This document shows, one piece after another, positions 17,014 to 21,661 of a stretch of DNA of 64,000 nt (positions within the stretch are counted from its first letter, which is position 1; every line of letters begins with the position of its first letter). The notes under the pieces are model-generated. The model saw nothing but the letters and a program-made list of their open reading frames with translations, did no database searches and was not told where the DNA came from. The translations under genes were made by a program, and so were the position numbers. The DNA lies in IMG/VR virus record IMGVR_UViG_3300018080_005856, positions 32,001 to 96,000 of that record, one strand, 5' to 3'. The DNA comes from a virus.

Positions 17014-19458
17014 TTAGCCAAGTAACCTCTCCGCATAGAGGCATGCCATACCATTCATACCTCTTACGTTGGAAACCTCCTTTCTCTCTACGAGTGCTTG
17101 CACGAACACCGCATATAGAACGATAGCCCTTTCGATCTTAGATACATCGAGTGTATCTATTATCTCTGGGTTATCATGGAGTTGTTTCCTGGTAGTTCCG
17201 ACAATCTTCTCAAGAAGAGTATCCACAACTACCATGTGGACATGAGCCATAGGCTTATGAGCTAACGCCCACATCTGCAGCATGACCTCTCTTTCTTCGG
17301 CGGAGATCAAAGGCTTAGCCGCTTTAATGTTGTCAGCACGAAACTCGCCAGCAACATCAAAGATCTTGTCGGTATCAAGCTCTACTCTATACACCTGACG
17401 TATAGCCTGAGCGAAGGATTCTGCAGTTCCTTCTCTCCAGCCGACAAGTTTACCACTGATGACAGTAGCGGTAGGGGACTCCCTGTCACCAATGAGAAGT
17501 TTACCAAGAACTGTGTCACACAGTTCATAGGCTTCATTGACCCCAACAGATAGGCCAACATACTTCTTAATCCCTTGGACACTGTCCTGGATAGACTGTG
17601 CCAGAGGTAGAAGATCACTCATAGCAGATTCTAAAGCATCTGACCGGAAATCATAGACAGTAGCCAGACATTTCATGTAAGCCGCTACAAGTATAGCTGT
17701 TCTCTCTTGACACCACCTGCCATGCATACAGGCTGTCCAGGGAGTAAGCTCACCTTCAGCAGGTACCGATGATTTATCTATCATTCCGAAATCATCAGTA
17801 GCCCGCACCATGCTTCTATACCCCGGGAGGAATAGAGCATGATCATCACAGTCAGACTGCCAACCAACTGTGGCTTCCAAACACACTACAGCCACGACTC
17901 CATCTACATCATCCAAGGTATGCTCAGATAGACGTAGATCTAAGAAGGAGCCCTTTGTAGTATTTGGATACCTGACCCCAGCAACAAAGTCAGATATTTC
18001 TCCAGTCCGAATAGTAAACTGAGTAAATCCAGACTGAAGTGCATCCCGCATTTCACGAGATGGTACAAACTCCCCAGGAAGAAGCTTGTGAACGTGACCA
18101 CCATCCACAACCACATGAGTCCTGTGTATTATTGCTGCATATACAGAACTCGGGGCATTGGCACTCATAAGAGCCTTAGACCTCTTATTAAGTCCCATTA
18201 TGACTCCCGGATCGTTTGCAGGAAGATATCCAAGAACATACTTAGACAGATAGCTATCTATAAGTACATCCTCTTCATCATTGGATAGACCCATATCCAA
18301 GTGACGATACATGGATCCCCTGAGATCATTCAGAGCTGCAGTCTTACCAAATGCCTCTTTACGGAGAAGAGCCATGATATCTTTCCGTGTGACCTTATCC
18401 CACTGTCCAAGAACCATATAGAACAGGTTCAGGCGATAAGCCTCCTTCTGTTCATGGTTCTCAATCTTGGACAGCCCGATAGTCATGTCGAGAACTACGG
18501 AGTCTTTCCCGGCATAATCTACCTTTATCCATTTGATAGCCGAGTCATAACACCAACCATCAAACTCCTCTGGAATAGGCTTTCCATCTGGTCCTATAGA
18601 AGCCTGTGCTGGGGAGTGGAGCAGCCTCCCCTTCACTATTCCAGTCTTTCCATCCATAGGAACAAGACCTCTTACAAGACCAAAGTCCCCGGATTGTAGG
18701 ATACTTGCTCTGCGGACTAAGATCACACCATCCGCATCCAGAGTATTACCTACTTCAGAAAGCTCCTCTGGGAATACCTTTATCTTGAGCTGATCAGGCA
18801 TTCCGAGGATCTCAGACCAACCGTCTTTACCCGCCCTTATGCGAAGGACGTTGACCTCTTGATCTGATACGTTGCCACACGCTTCACGGATAACGTCAGC
18901 AAACATGTCCCTATTCACCGAAACTATTCCATTCAGAATGGTTTCAGCTCTCCTGGAGGATATCCAGGAAGGATGTGCCGGGAATGCTACACCCTTAACA
19001 CCTGTCATCTTGAGGGCATACTCAAAGAGTCTACCTCTCAGAAAGGTGCTACATGAAATCAGGTTGAGATTAAAGCGCTCCTTTCCCTTCTGATTCCGGT
19101 TCCTTTTAGCTATCTGTTGACCGTTGTACTTTAAGCCAGCACAATAGCTACGGCCTGCACGAGATCTCCGCATATCCCTTGCGAGCTCGACACCGAGGAC
19201 TTCTGCCAGTGCTGCAGCTGTAAATGTCTTAGTAACATCTACAGCCACCTGACGAAGCTCTCTTTTCCTGAAGGCCTTAAATGCCTTAAAGACATAAGAC
19301 CCAGGGAGGACGATCTGATTCTTTATATACGGTGATACAAAGAACCTGTCCCCGTTCCAAACAAGCGTCTTTCCAGGCAATGGCCTGAAGTCAGCTTGCT
19401 CAGATGCCCGGAGAGATGACCCTCCGAGTAACAACTTAAGTAACCCATGATTATCCAT
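17014..19458 (-). CDS. putative single-subunit two-barrel RNA polymerase (YonO / QDE-1 RdRP-like) with DCDD motif
   Basis: Ordered motifs DADGVILV, FGLVRG...IVKGRL, SAIKW, YRLNLF, LLPGEF, GVRYP, QSDCDD and LAQSIQDSVQGIKK parallel the cellular RdRP/YonO series DG.G.I, QIR...KG.L, S..KF, LN.Q, L..GEV, RxP, DxDGD and AVD..K; CAGGAGGT RBS. Confidence 0.7.
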   Translation of the reverse strand: MDNHGLLKLLLGGSSLRASEQADFRPLPGKTLVWNGDRFFVSPYIKNQIVLPGSYVFKAFKAFRKRELRQVAVDVTKTFTAAALAEVLGVELARDMRRSRAGRSYCAGLKYNGQQIAKRNRNQKGKERFNLNLISCSTFLRGRLFEYALKMTGVKGVAFPAHPSWISSRRAETILNGIVSVNRDMFADVIREACGNVSDQEVNVLRIRAGKDGWSEILGMPDQLKIKVFPEELSEVGNTLDADGVILVRRASILQSGDFGLVRGLVPMDGKTGIVKGRLLHSPAQASIGPDGKPIPEEFDGWCYDSAIKWIKVDYAGKDSVVLDMTIGLSKIENHEQKEAYRLNLFYMVLGQWDKVTRKDIMALLRKEAFGKTAALNDLRGSMYRHLDMGLSNDEEDVLIDSYLSKYVLGYLPANDPGVIMGLNKRSKALMSANAPSSVYAAIIHRTHVVVDGGHVHKLLPGEFVPSREMRDALQSGFTQFTIRTGEISDFVAGVRYPNTTKGSFLDLRLSEHTLDDVDGVVAVVCLEATVGWQSDCDDHALFLPGYRSMVRATDDFGMIDKSSVPAEGELTPWTACMHGRWCQERTAILVAAYMKCLATVYDFRSDALESAMSDLLPLAQSIQDSVQGIKKYVGLSVGVNEAYELCDTVLGKLLIGDRESPTATVISGKLVGWREGTAESFAQAIRQVYRVELDTDKIFDVAGEFRADNIKAAKPLISAEEREVMLQMWALAHKPMAHVHMVVVDTLLEKIVGTTRKQLHDNPEIIDTLDVSKIERAIVLYAVFVQALVERKEVSNVRGMNGMACLYAERLLG

Positions 19459-19541
19459 AGGGTACCTCCTGTATTTATTGTATGCCTCTGTGAGACACCC
19501 TCATAGTATTGAACTCAATAGTTCAATACCCAGAGGCTGCC

Positions 19542-19634
19542 TCATAAACACATACTACAGGGTATAACAAGTTGTTTGGCACAGTCACGATGTGAAGACT
19601 CACAACTGTGCATGCGTCGGTGTCGATATACCAT
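19542..19634 (-). CDS. 30-aa Cys/His-rich micropeptide
   Basis: TAGGAGGTG RBS then MVYRHRRMHSCESSHRDCAKQLVIPCSMCL*. Confidence 0.5.
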   Translation of the reverse strand: MVYRHRRMHSCESSHRDCAKQLVIPCSMCL

Positions 19635-19682
19635 AATGACACCTCCTATTGTTAATGCACTGTACCGATCTCAGCTACGGTA

Positions 19683-19725
19683 TGCGTCCGCCCGGGAGTC
19701 GAACCCGGGTAAGCGCCATTCGGAC
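19683..19725 (-). ncRNA. tRNA-like minihelix (acceptor-like stem + T arm)
   Basis: GTCCG-AATGGCGCTTA-CCCGGG-TTCGACT-CCCGGG-CGGAC immediately after a stop codon; no D or anticodon arm. Confidence 0.55.
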
Positions 19726-20034
19726 TTACTTCCACTCAGACAGGGGTGGCCCCTCCAGAGCGAGGTGTTCCCCCATCATATCTCTGGCATCATCCAGCAA
19801 CTGATCAAGATCAATCACTGGTTTGCCTACTTCCGCCTTAAGCTCGGTAGGAATATCAGCTACAGCCATGATGTGATTCCATGACTGTAAGAACTGTTCT
19901 GCCTCCTTCTTACTTAAGGCCTTCCCACTATACGCTTCAATAAGCAGCATAGTGTCCTTCACTGCAGTGGTTACCTGCTCCATCCTTCTCTTCATCCTTC
20001 TTGTGACTTCTTGTAACTCTATTGCCTTTGACAT
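19726..20034 (-). CDS. hypothetical early protein
   Basis: CAGGAGGT RBS directly 3' of hammerhead 1. Confidence 0.8.
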   Translation of the reverse strand: MSKAIELQEVTRRMKRRMEQVTTAVKDTMLLIEAYSGKALSKKEAEQFLQSWNHIMAVADIPTELKAEVGKPVIDLDQLLDDARDMMGEHLALEGPPLSEWK

Positions 20035-20050
20035 AGAGTACCTCCTGTGA

Positions 20051-20106
20051 TATGTTTCGGATCCCGCTACAGATCCTCATCAGTGGGCTTAAGCTACCCA
20101 TACATA
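20051..20106 (-). ncRNA. type III hammerhead ribozyme 1
   Basis: UAUGUA^UGGGU-AGCUUAA-GCCCA CUGAUGA GGAUCU-GUAGCG-GGAUCC GAAACAUA; complete core, cleavage predicted between 20101 and 20100. Confidence 0.92.
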
Positions 20107-20135
20107 GGGACAGTTTTACATCATGTCCCAGGATG
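20107..20135 (-). ncRNA. H-type pseudoknot 5' of hammerhead 1
   Basis: CATC-CT-GGGACA-T-GATG-TAAAAC-TGTCCC. Confidence 0.7.
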
Positions 20136-20141
20136 TAATGC

Positions 20142-20330
20142 TTAACGATATTGAGATAGATCTATACCTTTAACATTAAACCTACCAAATACTGCTTCAC
20201 GCTCAGCATTAACAGCCTTAAGCTTTCTTAAAGCCATCTGCACCTTTGCAGCGTGATACGGGTGAGCCTTGCAGAATTCAGCTATCTGCTCTGGGCTCAT
20301 TTCGAGTAAAGTTTTAACTAGTTCGACCAT
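20142..20330 (-). CDS. hypothetical early protein flanked by two hammerheads
   Basis: TAGGAGGT RBS, 62 aa. Confidence 0.8.
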   Translation of the reverse strand: MVELVKTLLEMSPEQIAEFCKAHPYHAAKVQMALRKLKAVNAEREAVFGRFNVKGIDLSQYR

Positions 20331-20348
20331 AATGGACCTCCTATAGTA

Positions 20349-20405
20349 GTGTTTCGGCTCTTGCTTAGGGAGCCATCTTCAGTGGGCTTAAAGCTACCCA
20401 GACAC
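20349..20405 (-). ncRNA. type III hammerhead ribozyme 2
   Basis: GUGUC^UGGGU-AGCUUUAA-GCCCA CUGAAGA U GGCUC-CCUAAGCAA-GAGCC GAAACAC; one extra U after A9; cleavage predicted between 20401 and 20400. Confidence 0.88.
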
Positions 20406-20406
20406 C

Positions 20407-20433
20407 GGGTAGTTTTACATCATACCCAGGATG
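20407..20433 (-). ncRNA. H-type pseudoknot 5' of hammerhead 2
   Basis: CATC-CT-GGGTA-T-GATG-TAAAAC-TACCC; stem 2 differs from copy 1 yet pairing is kept. Confidence 0.7.
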
Positions 20434-20440
20434 CTTGAGC

Positions 20441-20614
20441 TTACTTCTGTGTAGATACGCACTGGCCAGTAACTTTGTTGCAGACTACTTTGCCTTTGAA
20501 AGCATCACTAATCTGCTTGTCCTGCCTTGCTGCCAAAACTACAAACAGAGCCAAGAAAGCTACTGTAGCTACACCAACCATAAACTCTCCAAACTTCTCT
20601 TTTCTTGTATTCAT
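20441..20614 (-). CDS. small membrane-anchored protein (57 aa, not in ORF track)
   Basis: TAGGAG RBS; MNTRKEKFGEFMVGVATVAFLALFVVLAARQ...CNKVTGQC. Confidence 0.7.
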   Translation of the reverse strand: MNTRKEKFGEFMVGVATVAFLALFVVLAARQDKQISDAFKGKVVCNKVTGQCVSTQK

Positions 20615-20898
20615 ACTGATTCTCCTAGTTGCGGACTATACCCATTGATTCTGCAGGGGATTTAACTGCAGATCTCATACACTGTTATCCAGGTGGTATG
20701 AGTTACCTGTACGGCTCCATTGACTGATCCCAATGGCGCGCTATACTTGTCTACTCGTCCAATACGGTGTATAGCAACCTCTTGGCGCGAGGGTAGAAGT
20801 ACCCGGGGGCTCGAACCAAGCAGATCCGATCCTCTCTAATACTCACCTGGTCCCGTTATACCCAAAACCGGGTTTGGCCCCCTATAGGGATTTTTGTC

Positions 20899-20927
20899 TT
20901 GACTCCTGGATATGGTTCTTGTAATCT
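20899..20927 (+). promoter_or_regulatory. sigma70-like promoter for the rightward operon
   Basis: TTGACT-N17-TAATCT in the divergent intergenic region. Confidence 0.5.
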
Positions 20928-20992
20928 TATGGGTGATAACCCTACGAACTTTTCTGGAACCCTGTAGATGGTATAAAGAGATCCTATGATTT

Positions 20993-21661
20993 TTGATACA
21001 GGTGGGGATTATGATAAAGAGTAAGATAGTATCCTTTGATTCTTTTACTTTGGGGGCAATCCGGGCCAGTCGCTTTGAATGGGACCGTGGTGACTCGATA
21101 GTTACTATGGCAATATCCAGGAATCTTAATCCCAAACCAAATATGATGGTAATACCCCTGGATGTTTCTATAGTAAAGGGAAATACCTTAGAACCCAGCC
21201 CTAATGCCAACATGGGTTACGGGAGTAAAGTAATAGGTAACGGGTATGTCTATACAATATATCCACAACCCGATTATATTGATGTATGGAACGAGATAGA
21301 TATGAAGGACAGAACGAACCTCGTGACCGGTCTTACTGAAAGAATAATAGTACCCCGATCTACTAAAGAACATAAGAAAGCCCAGTTTCACGCCCTGGAT
21401 ATTGATATAAGAGATGAGGTAATGATGCGTCTTAAATATAAAGCCGGCCGTATACAAGTATTATGCCCGGGCAATAATCAACTGTTAGTAAGCAGGGACG
21501 GAGGGATGTTCATGTCAGCCATTCATATATACAATAATATCGGACAGATTAACTCTTTAGTGGGTAAGCTAATATCTTCATGGGATTATCCAGAAGATCA
21601 CGTTAGCCGCCGGGCCTGGTATTTGTGGCACAGCCGATGGTGTAGATCATGGGAAAAGTAA
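20993..21661 (+). CDS. paralog family B protein 1
   Basis: LDIDIRDEVMMRLKYKAGRIQVLCP...VSRDGGMF motif. Confidence 0.75.
   Translation: MIQVGIMIKSKIVSFDSFTLGAIRASRFEWDRGDSIVTMAISRNLNPKPNMMVIPLDVSIVKGNTLEPSPNANMGYGSKVIGNGYVYTIYPQPDYIDVWNEIDMKDRTNLVTGLTERIIVPRSTKEHKKAQFHALDIDIRDEVMMRLKYKAGRIQVLCPGNNQLLVSRDGGMFMSAIHIYNNIGQINSLVGKLISSWDYPEDHVSRRAWYLWHSRWCRSWEK

Follow-up and report, generated by a model that had tools for sequence, protein, structure and literature searches.

Two type III hammerhead ribozyme motifs flank a single small gene in a metagenomic phage

Clustered hammerhead ribozymes have been described in prophages, where they flank single genes (Perreault et al. 2011, PLoS Comput Biol, PMC3088659). 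In the sections of that report drawn on here, the processing of long transcripts into single-gene mRNAs is proposed, circular or spliced products are raised as well, and native polycistronic RNAs of ~2 kb from three arrays are reported to cleave in vitro. What hammerheads do in prokaryotes has yet to be settled (PMC6155905, PMC6765202), and a 2019 review describes their purpose as still undefined.

The DNA analysed here, referred to as the window, is a 64,000-nt stretch covering positions 32,001-96,000 of the IMG/VR record IMGVR_UViG_3300018080_005856. It carries two hammerhead motifs, HH-up and HH-down, which lie together with their flanking genes on the minus strand throughout. Read 5' to 3' on that strand, a 57-aa ORF is followed by a 110-nt gap, a 62-aa ORF, a 107-nt gap, a 102-aa ORF and an 814-aa ORF. 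Both gaps have an identical cassette plan: after the stop codon come a small hairpin and a type III hammerhead, then AGGAGG and ATG. The arrangement that marks clustered phage hammerheads, two same-strand copies in intergenic gaps that flank a single gene, is found at this locus, and the pair matches the published picture of such clusters (PMC6155905 and the cited sections of PMC3088659). The features, in transcript order, are:

20441..20614, minus strand: 57-aa ORF on the 5' side of HH-up, containing a hydrophobic segment (ORF list).
20405..20434, minus strand: upstream element 1, a hairpin CUGGGUA/UACCCGG with an 11-nt loop, UGAUGUAAAAC (cassette alignment, folding, comparison with contig L010).
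20346..20408, minus strand: HH-up, type III hammerhead (sequence, Rfam model RF00008, class model R2, minimum free energy fold).
20101..20400, minus strand: predicted excised RNA of exactly 300 nt (from the cut sites).
20142..20330, minus strand: 62-aa ORF between the ribozymes, with the RBS AGGAGG at 20342-20337 and the ATG at 20330 (ORF list).
20107..20137, minus strand: upstream element 2, a hairpin GGGACA/UGUCCC with the same loop as element 1 (cassette alignment, folding).
20049..20108, minus strand: HH-down, type III hammerhead (sequence, RF00008, R2, minimum free energy fold).
19726..20034, minus strand: 102-aa ORF 3' of HH-down, with the RBS AGGAGG at 20046-20041 and the ATG at 20034 (ORF list).
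17014..19458, minus strand: 814-aa ORF, further downstream (ORF list).

On balance, the two motifs are probably genuine self-cleaving type III hammerheads that process a polycistronic RNA into single-gene mRNAs. The motif, its structure, the covariation of its class, and the position and spacing of the two copies are observed; cleavage itself, co-transcription and the effect on mRNA stability and translation we infer.

The conserved core (C3 U4 G5 A6 N7 G8 A9 ... G12 A13 A14) is intact in both copies. HH-down has the core CUGAUGA...GAAAC with a G-C pair directly after A9. HH-up has CUGAAGA, where the A occupies the variable position N7, followed by an extra U between A9 and stem II and then GAAAC. 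The triplet of HH-up is GUC at 20403-20401, which places the predicted cut at 20401|20400; that of HH-down is GUA at 20103-20101, with the predicted cut at 20101|20100. GUA triplets are found in natural hammerheads (PMC1636495). A15.1 pairs with U16.1 in HH-up (20352 with 20402) and in HH-down (20055 with 20102), closing stem III, and the core-adjacent stem II pair N10.1-N11.1 is present in both copies, in HH-up after the one inserted U. Stem III is 5 bp long in each, GGUGU/ACACU with one G-U pair in HH-up and UAUGU/ACAUA in HH-down. Stem II is GGCUC/GAGCC in HH-up and GGAUC/GAUCC in HH-down. Stem I is common to both copies, UGGG(U)/(G)CCCA, and has an 8-nt loop in HH-up. Between the two copies, stems II and III have changed on both strands with pairing kept, and stem I and the core are unchanged. 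A sequence-only reading of this DNA had already described two type III hammerheads with full cores and GUA and GUC triplets, sharing stem I and differing in paired stems II and III, each just 5' of an AGGAGG RBS and with cuts 300 nt apart around the 62-aa gene. This description, which gave no strand, holds in every detail that can be checked.

Full-length alignment to RF00008 gives both motifs the three-helix topology in which stems I and II are loop-closed and stem III is open. The minimum free energy structure of each isolated element of 63-66 nt is the three-stem hammerhead fold. Contact between loops 1 and 2 usually stabilises the tertiary structure of hammerheads and confers activity at low Mg2+. 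Here the two loops are complementary over only 4 bp in HH-up (GCUU/AAGC) and 3 bp in HH-down (GCU/AGC); across the class this complementarity is not significant, as 69/1000 shuffles reach the observed mean. When ~35 nt of upstream context are included, folding favours, by 3.5 kcal/mol for HH-up and 2.7 kcal/mol for HH-down, structures in which the 5' strand of stem III is sequestered, with a stem III pair probability of 0-2%, in a nearest-neighbour model that omits pseudoknots, tertiary contacts and co-transcriptional order. These predicted folds are a caveat for efficient cleavage, and they are also the basis of the idea, taken up below, that the ribozymes are gated or locked.

RF00008 aligns both sites end to end, HH-down at 31.7 bits and HH-up at 23.5 bits. 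Over the 150-kb record these scores correspond to E-values of 4.2e-6 and 9e-4, and the two sites are the sole matches there. Both lie under the RF00008 gathering score of 48.5 bits, which is a curated cut-off and not a biological feature. A default Rfam scan misses both sites because their scores fall below this curated value, and at gathering thresholds a tRNA is the sole Rfam match in the window.

A search of IMG/VR with the exact stem I and core pattern returned no match. A stem I and core pattern matched 26 places in IMG/VR, and in ~17 of these stem III pairing of 3-8 bp comes after a GUC triplet, far above chance. A first covariance model, R1, was built from 13 IMG/VR sequences aligned with both window copies (15 members), and scanning with it found further copies in the same contigs. 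The second model, R2, was rebuilt from 17 non-window hammerheads of other phage contigs only. With filters off, R2 scores HH-up at 48.4 bits (E ~9e-11) and HH-down at 32.6 bits (E ~2e-6); the next best match in the 64-kb window scores 12.7 bits. In the class alignment of 19 sequences, 86.8% of cells pair, against 67.4% in shuffles, and 54 cells have changed on both sides. None of the 500 shuffles reaches any of the five covariation measures (0/500), and in slid-partner controls pairing falls to 33-53%. An apparent array in contig L027, built from weak R1 matches, was not counted; Rfam finds nothing in L027.

An extra base after A9, between A9 and G10.1, is found in 9/15 aligned class members; it is U, A or C, and mostly U. 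Members with the inserted base occur on the IMG/VR contigs L009, L010, L015, L017, L019, L026, L029, L032 and L033. The same insertion site reportedly occurs in a viroid hammerhead (De la Pena & Flores 2001, a paper cited by PMC2632901 and PMC6155905). Both window motifs probably belong to a phage-borne subtype whose stem I resembles UGGG/CCCA and in which A9 and stem II are often separated by one additional base. Like both window copies, most class members have a Shine-Dalgarno sequence and a start codon ~5-25 nt to their 3' side. The 45 nt upstream of class members are more structured than random windows of the same contigs (lowest decile in 8/19, KS p ~5e-4). Three contigs (L019, L025 and L032) carry at least two same-strand copies each, 1.1-3 kb apart, and four other records that were scanned whole carry a single copy each. 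The order hairpin, hammerhead, RBS is a recurring module, of which the two in the window are unusually close together. The subtype with the extra base after A9 can be recovered by a simple pattern and a covariance model. As the window copies fall below the Rfam threshold, routine annotation may miss this subtype.

It is unlikely that the motifs cleave poorly or no longer do so and are kept as a repeated, structured intergenic spacer, such as a nuclease site, a translational insulator or a 5' stabiliser, or as boundaries at which recombination swaps small gene cassettes. The scores below the Rfam threshold, the core insertion of HH-up, the short loop-loop pairing and the competing folds would all fit such an account, as would the slow cleavage of some phage hammerhead variants described in the cited sections of PMC3088659. 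The lack of hammerheads in the more distant relatives treated below would fit mobile or recently acquired cassettes. Against it, no invariant core position is altered in either copy, A15.1-U16.1 and the core-adjacent base pairs are all present, and the compensatory changes between the copies keep exactly the hammerhead helices. The insertion of HH-up is moreover the majority state in a natural class that covaries.

The 57-aa ORF opens the leftward gene string at the divergent intergenic region 20615-20992. The sequence-only reading spoke of the earliest transcript, a label for which the position beside this region is the only support. No terminator-like site was found between the genes of the leftward string, and their shared orientation together with this absence suggests that they are co-transcribed. 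A sigma-70 scan of 19400-21100 returned no leftward promoter-like site, the count being no higher than in shuffles. The 62-aa protein has no match in Pfam or PHROGs and matches only itself or near-identical sequences in the protein collection. The 814-aa protein has no sequence match in Pfam, PHROGs or the PDB; its family is known from metagenomes only, through five homologues (P0002-P0006). Across the six members, a QSDxDD motif (residues 534-539) and many other positions are invariant. The AlphaFold model of the 814-aa protein has a mean pLDDT of 49.8, a low confidence that is too poor for a fold search. The sequence-only reading called this gene the polymerase gene, a label that neither these searches nor the model confirm.

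Two further features lie between the 102-aa and 814-aa genes. At 19657-19714 on the minus strand lies a tRNA-like module made up of an acceptor-like stem, a D-arm-like hairpin and the T-arm CCGGG-UUCGACU-CCCGG. Its match to the tRNA-like portion of YrlA is weak and below threshold (18.9 bits, E 0.16), and no tRNA is called there by ARAGORN. In the related contig L151, its T-stem has one two-sided change (G-C to A-U) and a C-G to U-G change. The module could serve as a signal for RNase P/Z-type processing of the same transcript. The 176-nt stretch 19479-19654 on the minus strand is missing from L151, an 86%-identical relative, and has the look of an insertion immediately 5' of the 814-aa gene. 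It contains an AGGAGG RBS, a 30-aa Cys-rich ORF (19634..19542) and then a long hairpin of ~85 nt (19559..19476), which surfaced as a spurious miRNA-type match.

In the mechanism that we favour, the ribozymes would act in the intergenic gaps of the leftward, co-transcribed 57-aa, 62-aa, 102-aa and 814-aa genes. Each would fold as it is transcribed and cut after its triplet, after GUC at 20401 or GUA at 20101, so that a polycistronic RNA would be converted into single-gene mRNAs. Each mRNA would begin with a 5'-OH and a compact ribozyme body a few nucleotides before the Shine-Dalgarno sequence, and each upstream product would carry a 2',3'-cyclic phosphate at its 3' end, immediately past the small conserved hairpin or pseudoknot element. 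The phage would probably benefit in that the stability and translation of neighbouring genes are uncoupled. Self-processing of the transcript, as the sequence-only reading had it, is plausible given credible ribozymes, co-oriented genes, no terminator-like site between them and published precedent.

The predicted 300-nt RNA contains the body of HH-up, the RBS, the 62-aa ORF (nt 71-259), upstream element 2 and the 5' strand of stem III of HH-down. Hammerhead cleavage leaves 5'-OH and 2',3'-cyclic phosphate ends, which RtcB joins. The earlier reading went on to suggest that an RtcB-type ligase circularises the excised unit, and the ends could also be joined by the reverse reaction of the ribozyme; the 62-aa protein would then be encoded by a circular mRNA. 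Many bacteria and archaea have RtcB, which was matched in 10/14 control genomes, and tandem ribozyme pairs 186-399 nt apart have been linked to small circular RNAs elsewhere (PMC13725137). We nevertheless regard a circle as very improbable. As the stem III strands of the two ribozymes differ, the junction would retain only three contiguous stem III pairs, and its minimum free energy structure lacks stem III and has no hammerhead fold. No pairs are predicted between the first 60 nt and the last 60 nt of the linear 300-nt RNA. All six frames of the circle have stop codons (5-12), leaving no endless ORF, and the multiple-of-three length therefore has no such meaning. RtcB is not encoded in the 150-kb record, which is ~79% complete; the host might encode one. 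Finally, in the sections of PMC3088659 cited here, Perreault et al. report seeking circular or spliced products from comparable arrays and detecting none. The junction, the ends, the viral record and the 2011 result thus leave the circular mRNA of the sequence-only reading without support.

Each ribozyme is preceded by a small element that begins 5-8 nt past the upstream stop codon. The two elements share an identical 13-nt loop core, AUGAUGUAAAACU, and their hairpin stems have changed on both sides. The 3' strand of element 1 overlaps stem III of HH-up by 2 nt. In element 1, CAUC on the 5' side of the hairpin could pair with GAUG of the loop as an H-type pseudoknot. In element 2, ACAUC and the loop sequence GAUGU could form the corresponding pseudoknot pairing. 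The third loop of such a pseudoknot would be A-rich. The same architecture is found in L010, an unrelated 66-kb phage, in which the first pseudoknot stem, S1, is AGUC/GACU in place of CAUC/GAUG, two positions having changed on both sides. The contig L015 may hold a shorter version of the element. The evidence for a pseudoknot is suggestive but thin: the proposed pairing is 4-5 bp, and three or four sequences carry the element.

Several searches with the element returned nothing further. The pattern 'AAACT ... TGGG ... CCCACTGA', written for composites of element and hammerhead, matched the known L010 and 79 new loci, of which none has a hammerhead (0 in 79) and which are chance matches. The element matches no Rfam family. 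Its stability as a nested hairpin does not exceed that of random windows, with percentiles of 0.46 and 0.78 for the window copies (0.45-0.78 when L010 is included). A preQ1-I-like pseudoknot has a similar topology, with an A-rich loop 3, and was rejected when no Rfam match appeared at E up to 10.

Such an element might gate cleavage by competing, as a hairpin or pseudoknot, with stem III and, in HH-up, also with stem I. Cutting would then depend on folding kinetics, on a bound factor or ligand, or on a ribosome finishing the upstream gene, and the element would afterwards trap the freed 3' end and block re-ligation. The identical loop core on a stem changed on both sides, the covarying S1 of L010, the stem III-hiding folds favoured by ~3 kcal/mol in both copies and the distance of only 5-8 nt from the upstream stop codon all point this way. 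Set against these are the few carriers of the element, the composite scan that yielded no hammerhead, the lack of an Rfam family, the ordinary stability of the nested hairpin and the shortness of a pseudoknot seen in very few sequences. We consider gated cleavage distinctly unlikely. The specific form in which the order S1a - S2a - U - S1b - (N)AAAC - S2b makes an accessory H-type pseudoknot that gates cleavage through stem III competition is more doubtful still. If it were true, the locus would hold a natural gated hammerhead in which severing of the mRNA is coupled to translation of the upstream gene, and the switch would be a factor, a ligand or the ribosome that terminates 5-8 nt upstream. 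The element offers a concrete candidate, open to experimental test, for a means by which such ribozymes could be insulated, locked or regulated, and it is the only part of the locus that might repay experiment.

The conservation of the locus was followed in relatives of the phage. A blastn search of 4 kb against deposited phages returned no match, and the phage proteins matched nothing in Pfam or PHROGs. The phage occurs in the JGI sample 3300029258, and a relative in 3300017989. The contig L153 (Ga0309772_1002298), a 27-kb JGI contig from another sample, is 100% identical except for a 78-nt deletion at window 20211-20134 (L153 position 762). Through this deletion the 62-aa gene loses its stop codon and 3' end, and upstream element 2 its first bases; neither hammerhead is affected. 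As this natural variant shows, the genome can persist without the C-terminus of the 62-aa protein. The shortened ORF of L153 reads through HH-down, giving a 104-aa call.

Two more contigs, L151 and L152, are ~86% identical to the window, starting at window 20112, and carry an 86%-identical homologue of the 102-aa ORF. A stretch of 121 nt comprising HH-down, the RBS and the first codons is without substitution in them, whereas ~10% of positions differ in the rest of the 102-aa gene, which also has indels. The unchanged block is consistent with constraint on the ribozyme. As it runs into coding sequence, it could instead be the product of a recombination mosaic and not of selection on the ribozyme. 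In L151, at about position 122 (window 19980-19991), a 12-nt in-frame deletion in the 102-aa gene removes one short internal repeat unit (AGGATGAAGAGA / AGGATGGAGCAG).

Searches of IMG/VR for close relatives of the 814-aa protein, made once with the single protein and once with an alignment, found none. No hammerhead lies near the gene in the four distant relatives that have DNA (L004-L007, 36-50% identity), of which L005 holds 495 nt upstream of the match to the 814-aa protein and L007 holds none. Being absent from these relatives, the hammerheads are therefore not an old fixture of the 814-aa gene block. The closest relative, P0002 (65% identity), encoded on an 8.7-kb contig of ERZ1426843, has four suggestive gaps of 114-139 nt in the corresponding places.

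The layout has been known in phages since 2011, and the pair described here is a sound but ordinary example of it. It adds one clean case to the phenomenon of phage hammerheads between genes and extends the arrangement to a phage lineage without characterised relatives. Like the arrays in the cited sections of PMC3088659, it consists of same-strand hammerheads in the gaps of a phage operon that bracket small genes of unknown function. It differs from those arrays, as described there, in the very short spacing of 300 nt, in that both copies are type III, in the conserved hairpin or pseudoknot-like element before each copy, and in a host phage that has no relatives among deposited phages. The haloviruses HF1 and HF2 carry a hammerhead, 'HHphage', upstream of an early helicase gene; according to the same sections of PMC3088659, and unlike the pair described here, it has atypical core insertions, is salt-dependent, occurs as a single copy and belongs to an archaeal host. 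With the type III hammerheads of RF00008, the window copies share the core, the NUH triplet and a three-helix junction in which stems I and II are loop-closed and stem III is open, but they score below the gathering threshold and HH-up has an additional U separating A9 from G10.1. Retrozymes and viroid-like circular RNAs likewise have two type III hammerheads a few hundred nucleotides apart and ends that can be ligated. In those systems, however, the repeats are identical and the circle re-forms the ribozyme, whereas the junction here keeps three stem III pairs, and the RNA between the cuts has the make-up of an ordinary mRNA, in which an RBS precedes an ORF that ends in a stop codon.
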